A stretch of 64,000 nucleotides of DNA from Candidatus Thorarchaeota archaeon (GCA_048882325.1 JBHLRS010000005.1:32001-96000); one strand, 5' to 3'; shown: positions 23,229-35,959, counted from the stretch's first letter. Program-made: numbers and translations. Notes: a model not told the origin generated them from the sequence alone.

Positions 23229-25310
23229 GTGGTTAGTATGCATCTGTATGGAAAAACTTGGGTTTTAATCATCTTCATGCTATGTATACTATGTACTTTT
23301 CCGAAAGTCACTTCAAATCTCGCTAATGTCACAATAGAGAGTTTTGAATCAACTGATAGCCCGAGTCTTGCTTACGTCGAACATGATCCAATAAACATTA
23401 CATCCGATTTGGACTTCAGCTCACAGAAAAACGTGGAAGGTTGGAGCGGTAACGGTAGTGCATCAAATCCCTACTTTATTGAGGGGTATAATATCACTTA
23501 CAGAGGATACAGTATAACAATCACAAACATTACATCACATTTCGTAATTCGAAACTGCTATCTCGCATCAAATCTGGGAATGGCACTATCAGATCCATAT
23601 GATGACGGTATTCAGTTAATCAATGTAGCAAATGGAGAAATTGTGAATAATACAATTCTCAATAACGGAGACGGAGGAATCTATGCTGAACTGTCTAACA
23701 TATCTGTGTCCAACAACACAATTATCGGAAATCGACTTGGAGTGATTTTTGTTAATTCATCAGGAAAAGTGTCCTCCAATAGAATTCAGGATTCAAGTGA
23801 ATACTCTTTATATTTCTTGGACTCAATACATTGCGACATTCGGAGTAACCGTTTCTTATCAGCTCCAATCAGTGAATGGTTGATTCAAAATTCCGCATAC
23901 ATCACAATTGAGGATAACACATTTCAGGCAACCAAAATCATTTTACGAGCTTGGAATACAACAGTTGCCTATAACAATCTCTCTTCGGGCTCAGCCATTG
24001 GGATTCAATTCTGTTCAAATGTTATTGTCGAGCATAATAATATCATCAATCCATCCTTAAATGCAATCGAAGTAGGTTACTCAAATCAAATCAGAGTAAC
24101 ATACAATACTATCCTTTCTGATATTCCTGTGTTCGATAACGGCATTATGGCGTTCGACTCAGATAATTGTCTTTATAGCGGAAACATCATATCGACATGT
24201 CTTAATGGTATCGATCTTGCGTATGCAAATTCATCTGTGGTCACATACAACTATATTGTTGGACAGCAAAACTATGGAATTAACATCTACGAAGGTTCTG
24301 AATATCTCATCTACGGAAACCTATTGACAAATGAAGGAATAGGACCTGCAAGAGACTCGAGTACTGACAGCCAATGGGACGATGGATCTCATATTGGCAA
24401 TTTTTGGGAGGCAATTAGTGATACGTTTGTAGAGATTCCAGGAAGTGCAGCAAGTGTAGATCGATTAGGACGGTCCATTGGACAAACAAATCTTACATTG
24501 CCTTTAGTCTATGAGTCTCCTATCATTAACATTATTGAGGAGGACAGAGCTGAGGTAAGATGGATTATATGGAGTAATCAAGGGACATATTCATTATATA
24601 GAAATGGATTTGAACTAGAAAGTCGAGATTGGGAAGGTTCTGGATTAATCTACTTTGAAATTGGCAACCTTCCCAATGGTTTCTACACCTACTCGATTCT
24701 GCTACAAGATTCTGTAAATGGAATTGTTTCAACCTTATACTCCATCGAGATTCCAAATCTGTGGTTTGTTGATTCTGATATGGACGGAATGCCAGATGAT
24801 TGGGAAATAGACAATAACTTGAATCCGTTCTTTGATGATGCAGGTTGGGACCATGATTCTGATGACCTGTTCAATATTGATGAGTATAGAATCGGTACTG
24901 ATCCTAGTAATCCAGATTCAGATTTTGACTCCATCTATGATGGTTGGGAGGTCCATTTCGGACTAGATCCATTGAATGCCTCCGACGCCTTGATGGATTT
25001 AGACTCAGACTCTTTGACGAATCTTCAGGAATTTGAGATTGGCACAGATCCCACAAATCCAGACAGCGATCTAGACAATTTCCCAGATGCCTGGGAGGTC
25101 AAGAACGGGTTTGATCCGACAAACCCAGCTGTGTCCTTCATGCAGTATTTTGTAGCTAGTGCAGCTTACATAGCCATTGCGTCATCGTTAGTGATTCTCT
25201 TGATGAGCATTCTCTATTTAGGAGTCTTTGATAAGCGCTCTCGGATGGACGCGCAGGTCAGGAAGGAAGAGGAGGATGAACAAGCAGCGTTAGAAGAACT
25301 GCTTGAATGA
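23229..25310 (+). CDS. Cell-surface protein: right-handed beta-helix (NosD-like), Ig-like segment, DxDxDG repeats and C-terminal TM anchor
   Basis: Signal-like N-terminus; GNGSASNPYFIEG; parallel beta-helix repeats; GNFW; DSDxDGMPDxWE repeats; TM followed by a charged tail. Confidence 0.85.
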   Translation: MVSMHLYGKTWVLIIFMLCILCTFPKVTSNLANVTIESFESTDSPSLAYVEHDPINITSDLDFSSQKNVEGWSGNGSASNPYFIEGYNITYRGYSITITNITSHFVIRNCYLASNLGMALSDPYDDGIQLINVANGEIVNNTILNNGDGGIYAELSNISVSNNTIIGNRLGVIFVNSSGKVSSNRIQDSSEYSLYFLDSIHCDIRSNRFLSAPISEWLIQNSAYITIEDNTFQATKIILRAWNTTVAYNNLSSGSAIGIQFCSNVIVEHNNIINPSLNAIEVGYSNQIRVTYNTILSDIPVFDNGIMAFDSDNCLYSGNIISTCLNGIDLAYANSSVVTYNYIVGQQNYGINIYEGSEYLIYGNLLTNEGIGPARDSSTDSQWDDGSHIGNFWEAISDTFVEIPGSAASVDRLGRSIGQTNLTLPLVYESPIINIIEEDRAEVRWIIWSNQGTYSLYRNGFELESRDWEGSGLIYFEIGNLPNGFYTYSILLQDSVNGIVSTLYSIEIPNLWFVDSDMDGMPDDWEIDNNLNPFFDDAGWDHDSDDLFNIDEYRIGTDPSNPDSDFDSIYDGWEVHFGLDPLNASDALMDLDSDSLTNLQEFEIGTDPTNPDSDLDNFPDAWEVKNGFDPTNPAVSFMQYFVASAAYIAIASSLVILLMSILYLGVFDKRSRMDAQVRKEEEDEQAALEELLE

Positions 25311-25472
25311 CTTGTTCCTGAAATCTTGACCCTTGTACTGCTTTGGATCCTTGCCAAAGGTCTCTTTACAATAAGGATTGCAGGAATAGTACGTCTTCCC
25401 CTCGTAACCACTAACGAGTATGGCTGTGGCCACATCCTCGTTGCAGATTGGGTCAACCGCAACTTCAGGAAT
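25290..25472 (-). pseudogene. Cryptic second YHS domain in frame after the copA TAG stop
   Basis: Translation past TAG gives IPEVAVDPICNEDVATAILVSGYEGKTYYSCNPYCKETFGKDPKQYK..., a copy of the copA terminal YHS domain; no obvious own start codon. Confidence 0.75.
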
Positions 25473-28160
25473 CTAGGATTCAGTTGCATTTACTTCCTTG
25501 TATTGCTCAGGATTGGCTTCGAAGTTATCTTTGCAGTTTGGATTACAGAAGTAATACCGTTTGCCTTCATAGTCACTATAGAGGTCAGCAGTAGCGATGT
25601 CGACTTCCATTTTGCAGATAGGATCGACTGCAACAGCTCCTTCCTGATAAGCAGCAGGTGGGACTCCACTCAAGGGTGCAGTTGTCTGTTCAGGTGTAAA
25701 TCGGTTCAAAGTCAATGCATTGGTAACTACACTTACACTTGATAACGCCATGGCAAGGCCAGCGAACTCAGGACGCAGTATTAGACCGATTGATGGAAAT
25801 AGAATTCCTGCCGCAATTGGTAGAAGCGCAATGTTGTAGATTAGCGCCCAGAAGAATCCTTGTCGAATCTTTGACATTGTCCGACTGCCTAACTGGATTC
25901 CTGTAACCACATCAAGGAGGTCATCTTTGACCAGGACAATGTCACCAGTTTCAACTGAAACGTCTGTTCCTGACCCTAGCGCAATTCCAACATCTGCCTG
26001 AGCCAATGCAACAGCATCATTTACGCCATCTCCGGCCATGGCAACAGTCTTTCCTCGACTCTGCAATTCCTTGATTTTCTCAGCTTTATCAGCTGGTAGA
26101 ACTTCACCGAGAACATTATTAATTCCGACAACATCTGCTATTGCATGCGCTGTTTCTTCCTTGTCACCTGTTATCATCCAGACTTCTATGCCCATCTTCT
26201 GTAAGCTTTGAACAGCTTGGACAGAGGTCTCCTTCAGCTTGTCTGCAATTGCTATGAGTGCAAGGGGATTTCCATTGATAGCTGCAAAGACCGTTGTCTT
26301 TCCTTTCTCCTGCAACATTGTACCCTGTGCTTCTGCATTTGAGATATCAATTGAATTCTCACTCATGAATTTGTCATTACCAACAAGAATCTGATGACCT
26401 TCAACAATCGCTTTTACTCCTTTTCCAGTTACAGACTCAAAATCGGTGCTGGATGGAATATCAATGTCAAGATTCTCGGTATATTGAACAATTGCCTCGG
26501 CTAAGGGATGCTCACTGTTCTTTTCAACAGAGGAGATAAGACGCAAAGCTTCTCCGTCACTGAAATCGCCATACATGATCATATCAGTAACCGTCGGCTT
26601 GCCAATTGTGAGGGTTCCAGTCTTGTCGAATACAATTGCATCAACTGTGGGGATAACTTCCAGACCTTCTCCTGCCTTTATCAGGATCCCGTGCTGTGCT
26701 CCTTTTCCGATGCCGACCATGATTGCGGTGGGGGTTGCTAAGCCCAGTGCACAGGGACACGCGGCGACCAGCACTGCAATACTAAAGGTCAAAGACTGAG
26801 TGAATTCAACCGGTAATCCTGTGATTGGTGAAACAATACCCAAAGCAGGGGAAACCCAGAACCAAAATATGTAGGTCGAGAGGGCCAAAATAATGACCAC
26901 AGGTGTGAATCTATTTGCAATCGCATCAGCCTTGCGCTGAATCGGAGGCTTGTTTGTTTGGGCTTCCTCAACAAGTTTGACAATCTGTGACAATACGGTA
27001 TCCTTGCCGACCTTTGTAGCTCTTATCTTGAGTACTCCGTTCTTATTGATTGTAGCACCCACTACGTTGTCGCCTACCTTTTTCTTGACTGGAAGTGGTT
27101 CCCCAGTAATCATCGATTCGTCGACGCTTGATTGGCCTTCTATGACTTCACCGTCCACAGGGACTTTGTCTCCAGGTTTGATGAGCACAATGTCTTCAAC
27201 TTCAACATCCTCTATTGGCAGAAGCAGTTCTTCTCCATCTCGTACGACAGTTGCTACTTTTGCTTGCAGGTCCATCAGACTACGCATTGCTTTGGAGGTC
27301 CGCCCTTTTGCGACTGCTTCAAGCGTCCTTCCAAGAAGAATGAAGCTTAGAAGAAGTACAGCTGAATCGTAGAATGGGGTGTATATACTCCATTCGGGCA
27401 AAAATGTTGCTGCTACAGAATACAAGTATGCAGCGCTTGTCCCCAGGATAATTAAAGTGTCCATGTTTGTTGTAAAGTGACGAGCTGCTTTTAGAGCAGA
27501 CTTATAGAATGGGTATCCTGCAATAAACTGCACAGGTGTTGCAAGAATGAACATAATGTATTTCCGTACTTCCTCAGATGGCACTAAGGTCGAAAACACA
27601 CCAAAGTGGATCAGTACAACAGGGATTGTCAACAAGACTGAAAACGCTAAAAGTCGAGAATAATATCGAATTTCATTCTCTCTGGCGAGAGATTCTCGAT
27701 CGGCATCAATACCCTCTGCTTCTGAGATTGTTACTCCAATGCTCTGAAGCGACTTCTTCACAATCTTATATGTGATCACGTCATCATCATATTCTATCAA
27801 TACGCGGTTCGATTCTTCAATTGAGTGAACAGATATGACCCCATCAATAGATTCCAAAGTCTTCAGGATTCTGTTCCAATCCAAAGGTGATTCGGATTCA
27901 TCTAGAGTGATTGACATGGATGGTCGTCGTGCACGGTATCCCGTATCCTCGATAGCCTTCTCTAGTGTAAATCTATTCACAGAATCAGGTTCGTATTCAA
28001 CTACAGCTTTTTCATCTAGGAGACTGACATTAGCCTTAATTACGCCATCTTGACCGACTAAGGCACCTTCTATCTTTGCCACACAAGATGCGCAATGCAT
28101 CCCTTCAATACGCAGTGACATTCTGGATGCGGTAACCCTTTGTTCAGATTTCTGACTCAT
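25473..28160 (-). CDS. copA: Copper-translocating P1B-type ATPase with N-terminal HMA and C-terminal YHS domains
   Basis: GMHCASC, TGE, CPC, DKTGT, SEHPL, GDGVND, YN and MALSS (Cu+ type) motifs; C-terminal DPIC...YYFCNPNC. Confidence 0.96.
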
Positions 28161-28202
28161 CTCTTTTCACCGTTTTTGAAATTCGAAATAATGTTTTTTA
28201 CG

Positions 28203-28222
28203 ATATATCGTACTCGATATAT
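28203..28222. promoter_or_regulatory. Palindromic operator ATATATC-N6-GATATAT upstream of copA
   Basis: ATATATC gtactc GATATAT, overlapping a minus-strand TTATATA box. Confidence 0.75.
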
Positions 28223-28267
28223 AAGATTTGTGATTGGACCGGCTTCAATCGGAAACCATATTGTCAA

Positions 28268-28783
28268 CTATAAACTCTGTTTGAACGCTTTAGCACAATG
28301 AACACAACAAAAAGTCATGGTTGTACCATTGACTTCCTCATGGTGCGCACCTTCGAAAACCCTAGCTCCACAACTTGCACATGCCGTAAGACTGGATCCG
28401 AGAGCAGATACTGTGATCGCAGCAAAACGTTTGAATAACTGGTCACTAAATCGCTTTCCCTTCCTCGTCATTGAGTACACGATCCTGCGTTTCTTCCCTA
28501 TGTCTTCCTGCTTCTGGGTGACTAGCTTCTTTTCTTCGAGTTCCTGCAAAAATGGATAGAGTGTTCCTGGACTTAATTTTTTCCCAGTTCGGTTTTCATA
28601 TCTTTTCATAAGACCATAACCATGCAATGGTTTTTCGTTCAACATCAATAAGATATAGAAATGCGAGAAATCAGCCAGTATTTCTTGTATGTCAGGATTG
28701 GGTGTTTTCATGTCTTGAATTGCATTTTCCTTTGTCATTTTTCGTGTCATCCCAATATAGCTCGAATGTTGTGAGTCACACAA
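28268..28783 (-). CDS. PadR-family regulator with C-terminal TRASH-type metal-binding domain
   Basis: ILLML...HGYGL...SPGTLYPFL..LEEKKLV...RRIVYSMT.KG (PadR); CASCG...FCCVHC (TRASH). Confidence 0.9.
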   Translation of the reverse strand: MCDSQHSSYIGMTRKMTKENAIQDMKTPNPDIQEILADFSHFYILLMLNEKPLHGYGLMKRYENRTGKKLSPGTLYPFLQELEEKKLVTQKQEDIGKKRRIVYSMTRKGKRFSDQLFKRFAAITVSALGSSLTACASCGARVFEGAHHEEVNGTTMTFCCVHCAKAFKQSL

Positions 28784-28927
28784 ATAAGGAATCGAGGAGT
28801 TTCCAGGTGTGACATATAGCCCATTCCGCGAAGCAGTTTCCTATAATAGTTGCTTGTTGACTAGATTCTTCCCAATCACTCTGAGAAATGGACTACACTA
28901 AAAGAGATTTAGATTGTATCAATATAA

Positions 28928-28961
28928 ATGTATCTTATGGGATATATCCATAGGGATAATT
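28928..28961. promoter_or_regulatory. Two overlapping operator copies upstream of the PadR-TRASH gene
   Basis: ATGTATC ttatgg GATATAT (28928-28947) and ATATATC catagg GATAATT (28942-28961). Confidence 0.65.
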
Positions 28962-29157
28962 GATACGATACTCTTCGGAACCCAAGAGATTCATGGCATC
29001 TATAAGACGCTCCCTATCGATACTATCGACCTCGATTTCAACAACAACCTTGACGTTTTGAAGACTTACTTCAGCGCCTTTTATTCATTCCTAATAAAGA
29101 TGGGCATTCTTAATTCTGTCAGATTAGTCAATATAGAGCAGCAGACAGAAGGTTTAT

Positions 29158-29220
29158 ATATATCGAGTAGGATATATCTGATTAGATATTATTGTTTTCG
29201 ATATATCTCAATAGAAATAT
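29158..29220. promoter_or_regulatory. Three operator copies upstream of the YHS-Lon-NIF3 operon
   Basis: ATATATC gagtag GATATAT (29158-29177), ATATATC tgatta GATATTA (29172-29191), ATATATC tcaata GAAATAT (29201-29220); TTTATATA box at 29153-29160. Confidence 0.72.
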
Positions 29221-29239
29221 ATAGACAGAGGCAAAGGAA

Positions 29240-29395
29240 ATGGCTAGAGATCCAATATGTGGAATGATAGTAGATGAGAACACAACCAAGCTAAAGTCGG
29301 TTCACAAAGGAGAAACTTACTACTTTTGTATGATGAGATGCAAGAAAGCCTTTGACAGTGATCCAGATCGCTTTGCCATCGAATCGACACATTAA
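29240..29395 (+). CDS. YHS/TRASH domain metallochaperone-like protein (51 aa, not in ORF track)
   Basis: Manual translation MARDPICGMIVDENTTKLKSVHKGETYYFCMMRCKKAFDSDPDRFAIESTH. Confidence 0.9.
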   Translation: MARDPICGMIVDENTTKLKSVHKGETYYFCMMRCKKAFDSDPDRFAIESTH

Positions 29396-29416
29396 TGATA
29401 AAACAGGTGCGTATCT

Positions 29417-31870
29417 ATGAAGAAACTGACATCAGGAGAAATCCGGGTTCGTTGTGATGATAGGGAGTTTGCATGCAGAACTAGTGCGGAGCTTTTCCCC
29501 CTAGATAATATCGTTGGGCAGAAGCGTGCTCTTGAATCGTTGCGATTCGGACTAATGATAAAGGACAAAGGATTCAATGTCTACGTTGCTGGTATTCCAG
29601 GAACTGGTCGTACAACTGCAGTTTCAAAATTCCTTCAAAATCTTGCAACAAAAGAATCTAACGCATCAGATTGGTGTTATGTAACCAATTTCGAGGACCA
29701 GTATCACCCACGAGCTCTTGAGCTGCCATCAAGCAGAGGGTTGCAATTAGAGCAGCAAATGGAGAGTTTCATTGAACTTGCTCAAATAACGCTTTCTGAG
29801 ATGCTAGAAAGTGAGGAATATATCATACAGCGAGATGAGCTTTTGAGGATTTTCAAAGACAAACAGCAGGAAATAAGCAATCAAATGGAAGATGAAGCCA
29901 AAAGACACGGGTTTGTATTGCAAGGTTCTAAGACTCGATTACTCCTGCTACCACTAATCAATGGTGAGCCTCTCAATCCTGAAACAGACACTCACCTGCC
30001 CAAGGAAATCCGGGACAAAATCGCAGAAAATCGCAAAGTTGTGGAAAAGCAAATGGGAGTGTTTTTCCGTCAATTACGTCTTATTGAACGTGAACTTCGT
30101 GCTGCTCTTCAGAATAAAGAACGTGATGCTGTGCTTTATGCCCTCTCTCCACTTATTGATGACCTTAAGGAGAAGTTCAGGGATTTGCCAAAGGTTACGC
30201 AATGGTTTCAGGACGTTGCGGAGGATATCACCGAACATCTTCAAGAATTCATCGGACTCTCAGAAATTGATTCATCAGATGAGCTGAATTTATCGCAAAC
30301 GGGATCAATTCTACAGGAAGAATTCACTCATAGATATAAAGTAAATCTGTTTGTTGATAATTTGGGAGCGGATGGCGCTCCTGTTGTTATCCTTGCAAAT
30401 CCTTCTTATAACAATCTATTTGGCATTATTGAGAAAGAACCACGATATGGCGGACTTAGAACAGATTTTTCTATGATTCGCCCAGGGGCCCTTCACAAGG
30501 CAAATGGTGGATATCTAGTGGTTCCTGCAATGGAACTTCTAACTTCTCCACATGTATATCAATCTTTGAAGAGAGCACTTGAACATGGCGAGATAGTCAT
30601 CGAGGAACCTCAGGAATCAGTCAGCTTCTTTACTGTGAAGAGTTTACGTCCTGAACCAATCCCATTGGACCTCCAAGTAATTCTAATTGGTGAGGAAGAG
30701 ATTTACCGAGAGCTATACAATAAGGATCCCGAATTTCGTCAACTTTTCAAGGTAAAGGCAGAATTTGATATTTCGATGGATCGCACACCTGAAAACATCC
30801 ATGTATTCGGCTCGTTCATTTGTATGATTCATACAAAGGAAGGTCTGAGACCTTTGAAAGCGGAAGCTATAGCAGAAGTAATCGATTATAGCTCTCGTCT
30901 AGCAGAAAGTCAAAATAAACTCTCTATAAGATTCGACATAATAACTGACATCATACGCGAAGCAAACTTCTATGCGAGCGAAGAGAAAAGTGTCACGATA
31001 GAAAGAGATCATATCAAAAAAGCCATCCGTCAAAGAATATACCGATTGAATCTTTACTCTGAGAAGGTTCGTGAGCTTATTAAGAAGAATATAATTTTTA
31101 TCGATCTTGATGGGGAAACTGTAGGACAAGTAAATGGACTTTCGGTAGTCTCTCTTGCAGGTCATGCTTTTGGACAAACATCTCGAGTTACAGCTAGTAT
31201 ATCACCTGGACACCAAGTTGTAATAGATATTGAACGTGAATCCAATCTTGGTGGTCCGATTCATACAAAAGGAGTACTCATACTTGGGGGATATCTAGCT
31301 AATCGATATGGAAGAGAAAAACCGCTTAGTCTTTCAGCGCGGGTTGTTTTTGAGCAGAGTTATGGAGGTGTTGAGGGAGATAGTGCAAGTAGCACGGAAC
31401 TGTATGCGATTTTATCTGCTCTTTCAGGTATACCCATTCAACAGAGATTTGCTGTAACTGGCTCTGTCGATCAACATGGAAGAATACAAGCTGTGGGAGG
31501 AATTAATGAAAAGATTGAAGGATTTTACGAACTTTGCAAAGCAAAAGGTTTGACAGGACATCAAGGAGTCTTGATACCGAAAGCCAATATTCAGAATTTA
31601 ATGGTATCAGATGAAGTAGTCGAAGCTGTCAGAGCAGATTCATTCCATATTTATGCAATAGAAAATGTGGACGAAGGCATTGAATTGCTGACGGGTGTAC
31701 CAGCAGGTAGAATTCAAGAGAATGGCAATTATTTGCCAGGATCAATTAATGCAGTGGTGGATGAGTTTCTAGTTCGAATGGCTAGAATTATGGAAAAGTA
31801 TTATTCAACTGAAAATCACAACAAACAAGAAATCTCTACAATACCCCAAGTGACGTCCTCTGGAGTGTGA
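29417..31870 (+). CDS. Lon-family protease, LonC-like (long coiled-coil insertion, no TM)
   Basis: GQKRA, Walker-A-like GIPGTGRT, PGALHKANGGYL, GQVNGL, FEQSYGGVEGDSAS (catalytic Ser), EKIEGF (catalytic Lys). Confidence 0.92.
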   Translation: MKKLTSGEIRVRCDDREFACRTSAELFPLDNIVGQKRALESLRFGLMIKDKGFNVYVAGIPGTGRTTAVSKFLQNLATKESNASDWCYVTNFEDQYHPRALELPSSRGLQLEQQMESFIELAQITLSEMLESEEYIIQRDELLRIFKDKQQEISNQMEDEAKRHGFVLQGSKTRLLLLPLINGEPLNPETDTHLPKEIRDKIAENRKVVEKQMGVFFRQLRLIERELRAALQNKERDAVLYALSPLIDDLKEKFRDLPKVTQWFQDVAEDITEHLQEFIGLSEIDSSDELNLSQTGSILQEEFTHRYKVNLFVDNLGADGAPVVILANPSYNNLFGIIEKEPRYGGLRTDFSMIRPGALHKANGGYLVVPAMELLTSPHVYQSLKRALEHGEIVIEEPQESVSFFTVKSLRPEPIPLDLQVILIGEEEIYRELYNKDPEFRQLFKVKAEFDISMDRTPENIHVFGSFICMIHTKEGLRPLKAEAIAEVIDYSSRLAESQNKLSIRFDIITDIIREANFYASEEKSVTIERDHIKKAIRQRIYRLNLYSEKVRELIKKNIIFIDLDGETVGQVNGLSVVSLAGHAFGQTSRVTASISPGHQVVIDIERESNLGGPIHTKGVLILGGYLANRYGREKPLSLSARVVFEQSYGGVEGDSASSTELYAILSALSGIPIQQRFAVTGSVDQHGRIQAVGGINEKIEGFYELCKAKGLTGHQGVLIPKANIQNLMVSDEVVEAVRADSFHIYAIENVDEGIELLTGVPAGRIQENGNYLPGSINAVVDEFLVRMARIMEKYYSTENHNKQEISTIPQVTSSGV

Positions 31871-32766
31871 TTAGTATGACCAAGCAAAATTACATAAAGA
31901 ATCTGGAGGGATTGACCAAATCTATTTCCTTAAGAACAATAATAGCCCCATTAGAACCTCAGGTAGTAAAGTCAGAAATAGTACAAACTAAGCAATTCAT
32001 AAATTCCGACAGCATCATAGAGTTTCTAGAAAATCGTACATACTTACCTGAGTTTGATTATATTGGTTATGAAGTAAACACTGTTGATCGTATTAACGCA
32101 GTATATTTGATGATAAATCCAGACCCTTTGAATCTTAATTATGTACCAAAAAACAGCCTTGTTATTTGTCATCACAAAATATCTACACACAATAATCGTA
32201 TCTACGAAAAAATGCTTGACCATGCAAGAGATTCAAACTTCAACATTTACAATTTCCATCTTGGGTGGGACATTATGGAAGATGGAATCACAGATTCATT
32301 TCTATTTGACTTTGGGTTAGCTCATCACGATTTCGAAAAAGTTGATCTTACATATCGAGGTCATCTAATTCCTCATCTAGGAGCTATTTTCAAAAAAAGA
32401 TTAACAATGGAGGACATAATCAATAGACTTTACATGATGAATGTCCAGCCATCAATTATCATTAATCCACAATGCAAGGTGTCCAAGATTGGATATATAC
32501 CTGGTGGTGGTTTTGTTGATGATATGGTCCTAGAGATGGCGGATTTAGGTGTCGATGTTCTCATTTCATCAGACCATAATTGGGTTGTTGAAACTGTTGC
32601 TAGAGAAGTAGGTATGACCCTAATTGAAATTGACCATTATCGCAGTGAACGCCATGGTTTGCGAACAATGAAGACCCTTCTTGAGAACTCATTTTCAAAC
32701 ATATCCATCAATATCCTAGAGAATGTTGATGGAATGAGACGAGCCCCATGCGATTGTAATTCTTGA
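31867..32766 (+). CDS. NIF3/YbgI-like dinuclear metal-binding protein (divergent)
   Basis: ICHH, YNFHLGWD, PGGG, ISSD, IDHYRSE match NIF3 metal ligands; GTGA overlap with the Lon gene. Confidence 0.7.
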   Translation: MISMTKQNYIKNLEGLTKSISLRTIIAPLEPQVVKSEIVQTKQFINSDSIIEFLENRTYLPEFDYIGYEVNTVDRINAVYLMINPDPLNLNYVPKNSLVICHHKISTHNNRIYEKMLDHARDSNFNIYNFHLGWDIMEDGITDSFLFDFGLAHHDFEKVDLTYRGHLIPHLGAIFKKRLTMEDIINRLYMMNVQPSIIINPQCKVSKIGYIPGGGFVDDMVLEMADLGVDVLISSDHNWVVETVAREVGMTLIEIDHYRSERHGLRTMKTLLENSFSNISINILENVDGMRRAPCDCNS

Positions 32767-32861
32767 GGAATGATCATCCAAGAAGAACTCTTGTTGCATA
32801 CTAGCTTAAGCACACCACTTCTATGATCGTTTCTTCAATTTACTCATTTTTAAACCATCTT

Positions 32862-33749
32862 TCATTGAACTCTCCGAGCCCGAACAAGCTCTACATTGAC
32901 AACAATGTGGCCAGGGTTAGAACGTTCTTGAATCCTGGTTTTAATGTAAAAGAGTAAAATCAAAGAGATATATCCAACATATGCAATGACCTCAATGGCT
33001 GAAGGGTTCCCATTGTAACCGAATAGAGCTTTTGCAAGTCCACCAATGAGACCATTCTCATGCAGAAGTGGATAACTGCCATCTGGGAATAATGGAGGAT
33101 TGATGTTCCAAAGTTCACTTGGACCTAATGCCAAGAAACCTATTTCTTGAAGCTCATGAATACCATAAGCAATCATTCCAGCGGCGAATAATACCAAAAG
33201 GATAGAAGTTGAATTGAAGAATGATTTTAGACTGACTCGCAATGAGCCTTGATAAATTCCCAATCCGACAAAGAATGCGAATATTAATCCCAAAGCAGCT
33301 GCAATGAAAGTTGTATATCCTTCTTGAATTGCTAAGGCAACTATGAACAGGACTAACTCGACACCCTCCCGCAAAACAAGAGCAAAAGCAAGAATCGGTA
33401 GACTGAGATTTCCTCCCACAGCCCTCTCCTCAACCGATTGTTTGATTTCAGTGGTTAGGTTTGTACTCGCCTTTCTCATCCAGAATATCATAGATGTCAA
33501 GAGGATCGCAGCAAATAACACAACTGACCCCTCAAAGACCTCCAGCATTGGTCCTTCAAATGACCCCCATATCACCACCAGCACTGAAGCTAATCCAATA
33601 CTCGTGATTATTGCAAGTAATGTGCCGCTGATGATACTGCGATTCAATTTCTCTCTGCCAGTCTTGCGTAGATAAGAGAACATTATTGCAATGACAAGGG
33701 CAGCTTCAATACCCTCACGCAATGAAACAATGAATGGTGCAATGACCAT
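32862..33749 (-). CDS. FTR1-family iron/lead permease
   Basis: Two REGxE motifs (REGIE, REGVE), HELQE, 7 TM. Confidence 0.93.
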   Translation of the reverse strand: MVIAPFIVSLREGIEAALVIAIMFSYLRKTGREKLNRSIISGTLLAIITSIGLASVLVVIWGSFEGPMLEVFEGSVVLFAAILLTSMIFWMRKASTNLTTEIKQSVEERAVGGNLSLPILAFALVLREGVELVLFIVALAIQEGYTTFIAAALGLIFAFFVGLGIYQGSLRVSLKSFFNSTSILLVLFAAGMIAYGIHELQEIGFLALGPSELWNINPPLFPDGSYPLLHENGLIGGLAKALFGYNGNPSAIEVIAYVGYISLILLFYIKTRIQERSNPGHIVVNVELVRARRVQ

Positions 33750-33763
33750 TATAGAATCCCCCC

Positions 33764-33907
33764 ATCATGGATTGATTCGTTTCGTCTAGCAGAGATTTTA
33801 TTCAGATAATGCAACATTACATATTGTCTTTGGTGCTTCCCTGGTCTACGGATAAACAATCTATAAGGTTCATTGATCTCCTCCTTTTGATCCAATACTA
33901 TGCTCAT
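33764..33907 (-). CDS. Possible 47-aa small protein between the ubiquitin-like gene and FTR1
   Basis: ATG 3 nt after the upstream stop; MSIVLDQKEEINEPYRLFIRRPGKHQRQYVMLHYLNKISARRNESIP fills the gap; no motif. Confidence 0.3.
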
Positions 33908-33910
33908 GAT

Positions 33911-34342
33911 TCAACCTCCTCCTATAGCAACCATAAACACAATTGTGTCACCTTCATTGAGTATTCTTTTCATTGATTCTTTAGAATCGAGTTCCATTTT
34001 TAGTTTCCAACCTGTTATGATTATTTTACCATTGACTATGATGATTGTTTCATTACTGAGGATTGGGTTTTTCTTCTCATCTAGATACGCATCCATTGAA
34101 TCACCAAACACACTCATCAGCTGACCAATCAGATCAGTGAGTGAAGTTCCTTCTTGAATTTGAAATTGAAATTTGTTGTAGTTTGATTCTCTAAGTCCCT
34201 TATTCAACAGCTTGATGAAAACTTGAATCACTGAGTTTTCCCTCTTCGACAGTTGTTGCCAAGAAGACAACTTTGACATGTAGGAAATTTCCGAGAGTAT
34301 CATTCTGTAGAATTCCTTCTTTGATATGCATCTCTTAACCAC
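33911..34342 (-). CDS. MoaD/ThiS/SAMP-type ubiquitin-like protein (start possibly GTG at 34231)
   Basis: IIIVNG...LNEGDTIVFMVAIGGG beta-grasp C-terminus with di-glycine. Confidence 0.85.
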   Translation of the reverse strand: MVKRCISKKEFYRMILSEISYMSKLSSWQQLSKRENSVIQVFIKLLNKGLRESNYNKFQFQIQEGTSLTDLIGQLMSVFGDSMDAYLDEKKNPILSNETIIIVNGKIIITGWKLKMELDSKESMKRILNEGDTIVFMVAIGGG

Positions 34343-34517
34343 AACAACCTCGTCGGCGCATTGATACTAATCTACGCTGTGAATAGAAATATGGGGAATC
34401 ATCAAACCTTGTTTTGCATGACTGCTTGCAAAAATAGTATCTCTGTCCCATATAATCAGAATAAAATTCTGTTACTTTTTCGTTTACCTCTAATCCACAA
34501 ACTGGATCGTTTACCAT
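34335..34517 (-). CDS. YHS/TRASH domain protein with GCCG tail
   Basis: DPVCGL...YYFCKQSC...F...P; C-terminal RRRGCCG; AGGTGA RBS. Confidence 0.88.
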   Translation of the reverse strand: MVNDPVCGLEVNEKVTEFYSDYMGQRYYFCKQSCKTRFDDSPYFYSQRRLVSMRRRGCCG

Positions 34518-34628
34518 CGTTAAATCACCTTCAGTTCCGGTTTTACGCTTTTGGCTCTAATATTCAAGATGTTGGTGAACGAGTATCTCTATCCAATAGA
34601 CCAATTGTTCACCAAATCTCCAGATTGT

Positions 34629-34717
34629 ATATTACCACAAGGATATATCGGAACTGTATTATTAAAGGCGCTCGGATATATAAATATATCGGTCAAGATA
34701 TATCCATTATGATATAT
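34629..34717. promoter_or_regulatory. Operator cluster upstream of the YHS-Ubl-FTR1 operon
   Basis: ATATATC ggtcaa GATATAT (34684-34703), ATATATC cattat GATATAT (34698-34717); degenerate pair at 34629-34662. Confidence 0.72.
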
Positions 34718-34735
34718 ATTGGTGTTTGCCATTTG

Positions 34736-34771
34736 AAAGAAAAAAGAGAGGAGAAGTGGGAATCTTCTCCT
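34736..34771 (-). terminator. Hairpin plus U-tract downstream of the third YHS gene
   Basis: AGGAGAAG (34749-34756) / CTTCTCCT (34764-34771); the minus strand continues CTCTTTTTTCTTT. Confidence 0.55.
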
Positions 34772-34812
34772 GCCCGCATAAGAATTGTACAGGATTCCTT
34801 AGGCTACTCTTC

Positions 34813-34965
34813 CTATTCTCGAATTCCCACTTCTAAGTTAAATTTCTCTGGATTGGCGTCGAACATCTTTTTATGCTCTTCATTCATAAAATAGTATGTT
34901 TTCCCCTTGTAAACGGATTTGATATGGGGTTTACCCATCATTCCACAAACAGGACATTTTGCCAT
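34813..34965 (-). CDS. YHS/TRASH domain protein, Met/His variant (50 aa)
   Basis: MAKCPVCGMMGKPHIKSVYKGKTYYFMNEEHKKMFDANPEKF...; AGGTGA RBS before the ATG at 34965 (the track ORF over-extends to 35118). Confidence 0.85.
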   Translation of the reverse strand: MAKCPVCGMMGKPHIKSVYKGKTYYFMNEEHKKMFDANPEKFNLEVGIRE

Positions 34966-35078
34966 TTTTGTCACCTTTTTTCCCGATTGTATATTCCTAT
35001 TAGATCGTTCATTTGACTCTCCAGAAACACCCCGAATAAATGGAGAAACGGAGACTCCAATGAAACACTCGATTATAT

Positions 35079-35167
35079 TTATATCCATAGGGATATATCG
35101 AGATTGACCTATAATCACATCATTGTAATATAAATCTATCGCTTTCGATATATCTACGTAGATTTAT
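35079..35167. promoter_or_regulatory. Two pairs of overlapping operator copies upstream of the third YHS gene
   Basis: TTATATC catagg GATATAT (35079-35098), ATATATC gagatt GACCTAT (35093-35112), ATCTATC gctttc GATATAT (35134-35153), ATATATC tacgta GATTTAT (35148-35167). Confidence 0.7.
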
Positions 35168-35272: not shown

Positions 35273-35959
35273 TCATCCCATGTAGATGCCTGTTTCTTCG
35301 CCTTTTAGGGCTTCAGTCATCATACGCATGAGTTCATGAAAAGTATCCTGGATGTTCTCTCCAGTCTTTGCGGAGGTCTCTCGAAAGATGGCAGGAACCT
35401 CTAATTTCTTGATGAAGTACTCACAGAAGGCTTGACCCTCTTCAGTTGTGACGAATTTGGACTTGTCATTGCTCTTGCGAAGGTCAATCTTGTTCCCAAT
35501 GATCACGGTTGGTGGTAGTGGACCCATGTTCTTGTATGCCTCGACCAACCACTTACTTGCATTATCGAATGTCTCTCTGTCAATCACTGAATAGACCAGT
35601 AGTATTCCGTTGCATCCACTGTAGTAATGTCCTCTGACCTTCTCGAAGGTCGGTTGACCTGCGAGGTCCCAAATAATGAATTTGACCACATCTTGCTCGA
35701 AGAGCACTCGCTTCGTAGCGAGGTCAACGCCAATTGTTGCAAGATGTCCCTCGATGAAGTCTTCGCCCAAATAGTTGCGGCGTATGCTAGTCTTACCTAC
35801 GGCTCCGTCACCGATCAAAACAGCTTTCATGATTTTGCTGCCATCATCTTGGTCACGCATGGTGTTTTTCTCCTGAAGCACATGTCCGCATTCTCGTGTG
35901 ATGTAGTCAGGTGGCCCTCCCGTGTTACTTGACCACAGAAGAATCACAGCTTTACCCAA
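35273..35959 (-). CDS. Rab-like small GTPase (start probably 35860)
   Basis: GDGAVGKT, TIGVDL, WDLAGQ, NKID, ETSAK. Confidence 0.93.
   Translation of the reverse strand: MGKAVILLWSSNTGGPPDYITRECGHVLQEKNTMRDQDDGSKIMKAVLIGDGAVGKTSIRRNYLGEDFIEGHLATIGVDLATKRVLFEQDVVKFIIWDLAGQPTFEKVRGHYYSGCNGILLVYSVIDRETFDNASKWLVEAYKNMGPLPPTVIIGNKIDLRKSNDKSKFVTTEEGQAFCEYFIKKLEVPAIFRETSAKTGENIQDTFHELMRMMTEALKGEETGIYMG

Follow-up and report, generated by a model that had tools for sequence, protein, structure and literature searches.

A candidate copper regulon in a Thorarchaeota genome, delimited by a shared operator dyad and a PadR-TRASH regulator

In a 64,000-nucleotide stretch of DNA (hereafter the window) from a 3.6-Mb Candidatus Thorarchaeota genome assembled from a metagenome, five neighboring transcription units, which together span 10 kb, are preceded by copies of one 20-bp dyad, ATATATC-N6-GATATAT. 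We consider it probable that these units form a single metal-stress regulon, with copper as the most likely signal, in which a PadR-TRASH protein represses transcription from the dyads and is released from them by Cu(I). The units are copA, padR-TRASH, yhs1-lonC-nif3, yhs2-ubl(-ftr1) and yhs3. A first-pass annotation of the window had named the genes for a copper ATPase (copA), the regulator, three small YHS proteins, a LonC-type protease, a NIF3 protein, a ubiquitin-like protein (ubl) and an FTR1 permease, and all of them were recovered by a listing of open reading frames combined with Pfam and NCBIfam searches. The palindrome that the same annotation had seen ahead of all five units is likewise confirmed, and is in reality the 20-bp dyad. 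For comparison, 14 related loci were mapped; they come from genus mates, from two more genera within the family, from a single genome of another family and from public assemblies. Coordinates are given in Table 1.

The operator dyad

The window contains 10 copies of the octamer GATATATC, where 1.2 would be expected; none of 100 shuffled sequences reached that count, and eight of the 10 copies fall in the five intergenic regions. Alignment of the promoters identified the 20-bp dyad as the functional unit; since the octamer is itself palindromic, dyads are often chained at a 14-bp offset. When the whole genome was searched, all four perfect dyads and five of the seven dyads with one mismatch were located in this locus, within a span of 7 kb (28203-35167). 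In a genome-wide spacer control the N5 and N7 variants gave no matches inside the locus, and the N4 and N8 variants did match there, as expected from chained self-palindromic octamers. Likewise, in the whole genomes of five relatives, the perfect dyads (23 of 23) fall on the contig that carries the cop locus.

Dyads are found at the same promoters in the 14 related loci, and they are retained while the flanking intergenic sequence diverges, down to 63% identity of the regulator within the family and to 46-52% in another family; beside a 45%-identical PadR-TRASH gene adjoining copA in an unrelated metagenome, the same half-sites are separated by an N7 spacer. The copA dyad is kept in all orthologous loci and doubled in several, and the two-block layout of the yhs2 and yhs3 operators, with a spacing of 55-56 bp, is also present in relatives. 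In every locus the dyads accompany padR-TRASH, its own promoter included, and none were found around a PadR-TRASH homologue of 31-33% identity (L041). The genome's sole other dyad cluster lies between the genes of a 259-aa PadR-domain paralogue and an aldo-keto reductase (L052, G000:C57, 3637-3693), where the operator, GTATC-N6-GATAT, is related but distinct and has equivalents in G013:C75 and G003:C111; its position beside another PadR gene fits a PadR-type operator geometry.

The PadR-TRASH regulator

The regulator scores 61.1 bits against Pfam PadR (PF03551, cut-off 27) and is composed of a PadR subfamily-2 winged helix, a long C-terminal helix and a TRASH domain of the form C-x2-C-x20-C-C-x-H-C, the spacing of which (C-x2-C-x20-C-x3-C) fits the family criterion C-x2-C-x19-22-C-x3-C. 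The Cys4/His set of this domain does not vary among 47 homologues, the most distant of which are 38% identical, and a PadR-TRASH paralogue in one relative (G153) scores 33.5 bits for TRASH, above the cut-off of 27. In an AlphaFold2 model (predicted local distance difference test score, pLDDT, of 81) a small beta-rich TRASH unit follows the long helix, and Foldseek matched this model to TA0346, Rv3488 and LmrR at a probability of 1.0 with TM-scores (by target) of up to 0.85; the predicted fold is that of PadR subfamily 2. This protein probably reads the shared dyads and senses Cu(I).

Conservation across relatives

The genes that the first-pass annotation had grouped together are indeed co-located in relatives, since a synteny comparison recovered the full gene set with conserved dyads in G013, G213 (L055), G236 and G153, which are assigned to three genera. 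A core of padR-TRASH followed by copA, each with dyads, is present in every locus, except that in G153 copA is not beside padR within the fetched part of the cluster. The arrangement of yhs followed by lonC, divergent from padR, occurs in seven loci (this genome, G013, G213, L057, G236, G153 and G227), and NIF3 follows lonC in this genome, G013, G213, G236 and G153, with a dyad pair of its own in the last two. The yhs-ubl pair is found in six loci, one of them without FTR1, and L057 has ubl without an adjacent yhs; FTR1 is found in five loci. Partial extensions consist of yhs-ubl in L053 and of yhs-lonC in L057 and G227, and six loci of this genus are minimal, with no extras. In G153 (L097, G153:C16, 5823-16852) dyads are also found ahead of further units, namely an HMA gene, another copA-padR-TRASH pair, the genes of a MacB-type ATP-binding cassette (ABC) exporter, whose ATPase has a YHS domain fused to its C-terminus, and the gene of a DUF6114 membrane protein. 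As judged from these sequences, the regulon is real, modular and variable between lineages. Elsewhere in the same relative (G153:C7), two one-mismatch dyads were seen about 200 nt upstream of a radical-SAM/SPASM gene.

Promoter geometry and mode of regulation

In the mechanism that we propose, a PadR-TRASH dimer would bind the dyads, which appear to overlap or abut the TATA boxes of the five promoters and, at yhs2 and yhs3, the transcription-start region as well. Across loci, the dyad at copA ends 36-42 nt before the ATG, and ribosome-binding sites of the GGTGA type stand ahead of the ATGs; at the copA promoter of G005 nothing TATA-like was found between dyad and ATG, and the TATA box is therefore placed inside the operator, probably in its last half-site. 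The padR array and the distal yhs3 block run directly into TTTATAT, which in the case of padR does not vary among seven loci. The yhs2 and yhs3 operators each have a second block 55-56 bp farther downstream, near the predicted start of transcription. With dyads over TATA boxes, the metal-free protein would block TBP and TFB, and Cu(I) bound at the Cys4/His TRASH site would free the DNA. The induced set would include the regulator itself (autoregulation). CopA would then export copper, the three YHS mini-proteins would act as Cu(I) buffers or chaperones, the ATP-independent LonC protease/chaperone together with NIF3 would remove or re-metallate copper-damaged proteins, and the ThiS/MoaD-like protein with FTR1 would re-supply iron. 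From this we infer a response that may export copper, clear mismetallated proteins and restore iron, in which the roles suggested for LonC (copper-unfolded proteins), NIF3 (metal re-insertion) and Ubl-FTR1 (iron) are drawn entirely from knowledge of the families.

Repression is favored because of the promoter geometry at copA, padR, yhs2 and yhs3. The same regulon could be governed by a PadR-TRASH protein that is a copper-dependent activator or dual regulator, staying on the DNA and changing conformation, an arrangement which we regard as unlikely and for which a precedent has been proposed in the Lrp-type CopR of Pyrococcus furiosus (PMC7830388). Several arrays lie upstream of candidate TATA elements, namely the TTTATAT after the padR and yhs3 arrays, and blocks paired at a distance of 55-56 bp suggest that a higher-order complex forms. 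However, at some copA promoters the last half-site coincides with the sole TATA-like sequence, and the second dyad of yhs2 and yhs3 sits at the predicted start site. LmrR and Rv3488, with which the modeled regulator was matched, are dimers, and LmrR, like PadR, is a ligand-released repressor, which also weighs against activation.

The YHS proteins and the genes that follow them

Against Pfam YHS (PF04945, cut-off 30.3) the three mini-proteins score 49.9 (yhs1), 50.9 (yhs2) and 32.2 bits (yhs3), and all five YHS-domain matches of the whole genome fall in this locus. The paralogues differ in their ligand sets, each of which is conserved among its orthologues: yhs1 has Cys7 and Cys30-x3-Cys34 (Cys3) with a flanking Met, yhs2 has Cys3 and a C-terminal GCCG tail that is kept in L053, and in yhs3 there is an N-terminal CxxC, while Met/His stand in for C-x3-C. 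Six orthologues of yhs1, 67-92% identical, were found, each immediately 5' of lonC, and yhs3 is 82-90% identical in relatives. The earlier statement that each unit begins with a TRASH- or YHS-bearing gene holds for the three yhs-led units but not for copA and padR, which do not begin with such a domain because in both it is C-terminal.

LonC matches AAA_32 (173 bits), the LonB LID (84), LonC_helical (47.5) and Lon_C (37), and its best match in the PDB is MtaLonC of Meiothermus taiwanensis (4fwd, E 1e-94). Walker A is replaced by GTGRTT (Lys to Arg) and Walker B by VVPAME (no Asp-Glu), and the protease dyad of Ser656 and Lys699 is invariant; as far as these motifs indicate, a degenerate ATPase site with an intact Ser-Lys dyad matches the ATP-independent LonC type (PMC3391209, PMC13069640). 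In a quick maximum-likelihood tree, the copper-linked Thorarchaeota LonC forms a clade of its own (support 100) that groups with LonC of another Asgard family (f12), and the other clade, scattered across families, includes a second Thorarchaeota paralogue encoded away from the cop locus. In f12 a LonC relative of 53-56% identity is followed directly in most genomes by a P2-type cation ATPase (e.g. L088, G085:C2, 6037-11339), and one genome of that family (G092) has LonC flanked by copA and padR-TRASH. LonC and P-type ATPases may thus have been associated for longer, although the adjacency in f12 represents few independent events because the relatives share ancestry.

NIF3 scores 72.9 bits against PF01784 (cut-off 23.4), and its HH, H..D and HY..E motifs align with Methanocaldococcus jannaschii MJ0927; its score for the NCBIfam equivalog, 64.8 bits, is below the cut-off of 130, and it is therefore a divergent member. 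FTR1 scores 163 bits against PF03239, carries two REXXE motifs (REGIE and REGVE) as its family requires, and reaches 214 bits against NCBIfam EfeU, below the equivalog cut-off of 255. The ubiquitin-like assignment of Ubl is the weakest of the gene identities, with 21 bits for ThiS (cut-off 22.5) and 23 bits for moaD_arch, both under the cut-off. Its GDxVVFM..GGG pattern is conserved and the C-terminal GGG is kept; in an AlphaFold2 model with a pLDDT of only 64.5 the elements follow the beta-grasp order, and the top Foldseek matches are ubiquitin, Urm1, MoaD and ThiS, all weak (E 5e-3 or worse). Relatives of Ubl are annotated as MoaD/ThiS, more distant ones carry PF02597 and PF09138, and E1-like enzymes are encoded elsewhere in the same genome.

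The first-pass annotation had treated yhs2-ubl-ftr1 as one unit. The yhs2 gene overlaps the start of ubl, and ftr1 is presumed to be co-transcribed because it lies 160 nt after ubl without an operator of its own. A 52-codon frame in the gap ("orf52", 33749-33907, minus strand, overlapping the ftr1 start) was rejected as a gene, being 54-63% identical among relatives against 74-89% for its neighbors and unrecognizable in G236 and G153; the gap is probably an untranslated spacer.

The co-regulation could also be real and its logic different, if a cassette of paired operator and yhs gene had been duplicated and had captured unrelated genes. LonC, NIF3, Ubl and FTR1 would then be lineage-specific passengers, or FTR1-yhs2 would serve metal uptake, not repair. 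Such a history would account for the two-block design with 55-56-bp spacing shared by the yhs2 and yhs3 upstream regions, and for the independent gain and loss of modules among the 15 loci, six of which are minimal. Nevertheless, we find it decidedly unlikely, as the YHS-LonC adjacency persists in seven loci down to 67% identity, NIF3 has gained its own dyads without a YHS leader, and LonC relatives in another family also lie beside P-type ATPases.

In a more tentative reading, which we hold to be possible but on the whole rather unlikely, YHS proteins and fused YHS domains (those of CopA and of the G153 ABC ATPase) may serve as modular Cu(I) inputs that couple copper status post-translationally to effectors, with YHS1 licensing or feeding LonC, YHS2 doing likewise for Ubl and FTR1, and NIF3 re-metallating damaged centers. 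If true, this would give LonC and NIF3 their first defined physiological role, as the arm by which an Asgard archaeon maintains proteostasis and repairs proteins after copper damage.

CopA and the nature of the signal

CopA matches the Pfam families HMA (72 bits), E1-E2 (204), Hydrolase (129) and, at its C-terminus, YHS (54.0), and scores 609 bits for the NCBIfam Cu-ATPase model TIGR01511 (cut-off 397). Its translation carries the set of motifs that defines P1B-1 ATPases, i.e. CPC in transmembrane helix 4, YN in helix 5 and MxxSS in helix 6, together with DKTGT and the N-terminal HMA CxxC. Copper is favored as the signal on two grounds: the constant partner of the regulator is a P1B-1 ATPase, and the regulon of relatives takes in HMA/CopZ genes. 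It seems improbable that the signal is another thiophilic metal (Ag, Cd, Zn, Hg) or thiol oxidation and that the genes form a general soft-metal or redox stress regulon. The cysteine sites of TRASH and YHS domains are not single-metal-specific from sequence alone, a 41%-identical homologue of the regulator adjoins a pyridine-nucleotide disulfide oxidoreductase and not copA, and the three YHS paralogues have different ligand sets; yet the CPC, YN and MxxSS motifs of the invariable partner are a Cu(I)/Ag(I) signature, and HMA/CopZ-like genes belong to the regulon of relatives. That some factor other than the adjacent PadR-TRASH binds the dyads is very improbable in spite of the AT-rich, TATA-like motif, considering the strict co-occurrence of dyads and padR-TRASH in every locus, the lack of dyads at L041 and the related dyad adjoining a paralogous PadR.

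Several points limit or weigh against the reading as a single copper-released repressor regulon. The genomes compared were assembled incompletely from metagenomes, and related genomes do not count as independent samples. The TRASH domain of the regulator scores 24-26 bits for Pfam TRASH/Ta0938, just under the cut-off of 27. Between the operators of padR, yhs2 and yhs3 and the start codons downstream there are 125-220 nt, which makes the promoter positions there guesses. A copper-linked LonC occurs in six of the 77 family genomes sampled and the extension is missing from most relatives, and neither YHS genes nor dyads were found near the LonC homologues of the other clade. Finally, the archaeal TRASH regulator that has been characterized, CopR of P. 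furiosus, activates copA under copper, which is not simple derepression (PMC7830388).

Table 1. Genes, operators and remnants of the cop locus, in window positions.
Feature	Coordinates	Strand	Basis or remark
In-frame TAG (25473-25475) and remnant of second CopA YHS	25290-25475	-	Frame shared with copA; relatives compared
copA (895 aa; P1B-1 Cu-exporting ATPase; N-terminal HMA CxxC, C-terminal YHS)	25473-28160	-	Pfam, NCBIfam, motifs
copA operator, single perfect dyad ATATATC-N6-GATATAT	28203-28222		43-62 nt upstream of copA ATG
padR-TRASH regulator, 156 aa	28268-28738	-	Pfam, invariant Cys/His, AlphaFold2/Foldseek
padR operator, three chained octamers running into TTTATAT (putative TATA box)	28928-28961		
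copZ-like HMA pseudogene remnant	28980-29123	-	tblastn with intact L055 HMA
yhs1/lonC operator array, dyads at 29158, 29172 and 29201	29158-29220		Kept in G013, G213, G236, G153, G227, L057
yhs1, 51-aa YHS protein	29240-29395	+	Pfam YHS
lonC, LonC-type protease, 817 aa	29417-31870	+	Pfam, PDB match, motifs
nif3, NIF3/DUF34 protein, 299 aa, start overlapping lonC stop	31867-32766	+	Pfam, motif alignment
ftr1, FTR1/EfeU-type iron permease, two REGxE motifs	32862-33749	-	Pfam, NCBIfam, motifs
ubl, putative ubiquitin-like ThiS/MoaD-family protein ending GGG	33911-34342	-	Conserved core of ~105 aa at 33914-34228
yhs2, 60-aa YHS protein, C-terminal GCCG tail, overlapping ubl start	34335-34517	-	Pfam
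yhs2 operator, two blocks, GATATATC cores at 34642 and 34697 (55 bp apart)	34629-34717		
Terminator-like hairpin and T-run after yhs3	34735-34771	-	Sequence kept in G013 and G003
yhs3, 50-aa YHS variant	34813-34965	-	Pfam, alignment
yhs3 operator, two blocks, cores at 35092 and 35147 (55 bp apart)	35079-35167		

Remnants, padR leader and flanking genes

A 47-aa YHS frame at 25290-25433 is not a gene of its own. It is instead the remnant of a second YHS domain of CopA, which continues in frame after the TAG with all three Cys. Two YHS domains in a single CopA open reading frame are found in G003, G005, G011, L053 and G236; the second is decayed in G213, and G013 has none. The comparison looks like a recent loss by nonsense mutation, and the TAG may be subject to readthrough. 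Between the padR and yhs1 operators, the translated remnant of an HMA gene is 58% identical to the intact L055 protein over residues 26-73; it has stops in the N-terminal part and has lost the CxxC. The HMA gene of L055/G213 is intact (78 aa) and has its own dyad.

The leader of padR (28739-28927), about 190 nt between operator and ATG, contains blocks conserved across seven loci, e.g. CAACTATTATAGGAAA and GTCACA...TGTGAC. Two ideas about this leader were rejected: an upstream open reading frame of 22-25 aa is present in the window and in G013 but is broken by stops in G213, and for a structured RNA RNAalifold gave -3 kcal/mol with an unfavorable covariation term.

Next to the cop locus there is a gene for a Ras/Rab-like small GTPase (35273-35959, minus strand), as in most of the Thorarchaeota relatives whose loci were inspected; being situated upstream of the operators, this gene is probably outside their control. 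In G213:C46 (L055), which is assigned to another genus, the whole cluster is present at 80-91% protein identity and is flanked by a major facilitator superfamily transporter and a flavodoxin, not by the GTPase. As the cluster is intact in a different neighborhood, lateral movement of the block into G213 is suggested; a neighboring 462-aa protein, meant to gauge between-genus identity, turned out to be a member of a multi-copy family.

Comparison with known systems

The combination of genes had been put forward as undescribed. In the literature search no paper was found that pairs PadR with a TRASH domain, nor did anything found there connect LonC or NIF3 with a copper regulon, in accordance with that claim, but the iron arm has precedents (PMC7830388, PMC10783030). 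What is new is the extension, as defined by the operator, to LonC, NIF3 and the ubiquitin-like protein. LonC and NIF3/DUF34, two widespread families whose function is not settled, are thereby placed under a putative metal-stress switch together with a ubiquitin-like protein specific to Thorarchaeota, and vague hypotheses (a protease/chaperone for unfolded proteins, a metal insertase) become directly testable. In evolutionary terms, the regulon appears to grow module by module, and in several modules a YHS gene with its operator comes first.

In the cop system of Enterococcus hirae (CopY, CopZ, CopA and CopB), the repressor CopY is a winged-helix protein that has a Cys-rich metal site at its C-terminus and binds a palindromic "cop box" over the promoter, and the chaperone CopZ hands Cu(I) to CopY; copper-dependent proteolysis of the chaperone has also been reported. 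The likeness to the regulation proposed here is one of mechanism, i.e. a repressor with a Cys-rich site and a palindrome over the promoter. In contrast, the E. hirae system is bacterial, CopY is of the BlaI/MecI type and not a PadR, the cop box has another sequence, and the operon is without a protease, NIF3 or FTR1.

MtaLonC shares with the present LonC its domain order, its degenerate ATPase site and its Ser-Lys dyad (PMC3391209, PMC13069640). The papers on it describe the structure and in-vitro activity of an ATP-independent Lon-like protease/chaperone, and no physiological context was found in them, whereas here a LonC clade is tied to a copper-type operator with a YHS gene ahead of it. 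For NIF3/DUF34 proteins, a function as metal chaperone or insertase has been hypothesized (PMC8469502); the metal-site motifs of the family are kept here, and the difference lies in the translational coupling to LonC or in an operator of its own. An FTR1-family permease clustered with a YHS-domain protein is known from fetMP-fetABCDEF of Campylobacter jejuni, a system that is iron-regulated and periplasmic (PMC10783030). In that system the YHS domain belongs to FetA, a large membrane protein, whereas the YHS protein of the present locus is free, is 60 aa long and goes with a ubiquitin-like partner and a copper-type operator.

The closest likeness is to the archaeal TRASH-type cop clusters, CopR/CopT-CopM-CopA of Sulfolobus solfataricus and CopR (PF0739) of P. 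furiosus (PMC7830388), which have in common with the present locus a DNA-binding domain with a C-terminal TRASH domain, a small TRASH/YHS protein, a P1B ATPase and autoregulation. The response of P. furiosus to copper extends to iron transporters, ferritin and Fe-S assembly as well (PMC7830388). The clusters differ in that the regulator is here a PadR subfamily-2 protein (predicted to be a dimer) and there an Lrp-like octamer, in that a sharp 20-bp dyad takes the place of a weak extended motif, and in the additional LonC, NIF3 and ThiS/MoaD-like members, most of the added units being led by a YHS mini-gene. The union of PadR and TRASH would represent a second architecture of archaeal copper sensor, with an operator unusually sharp in that it predicts the whole regulon from sequence.

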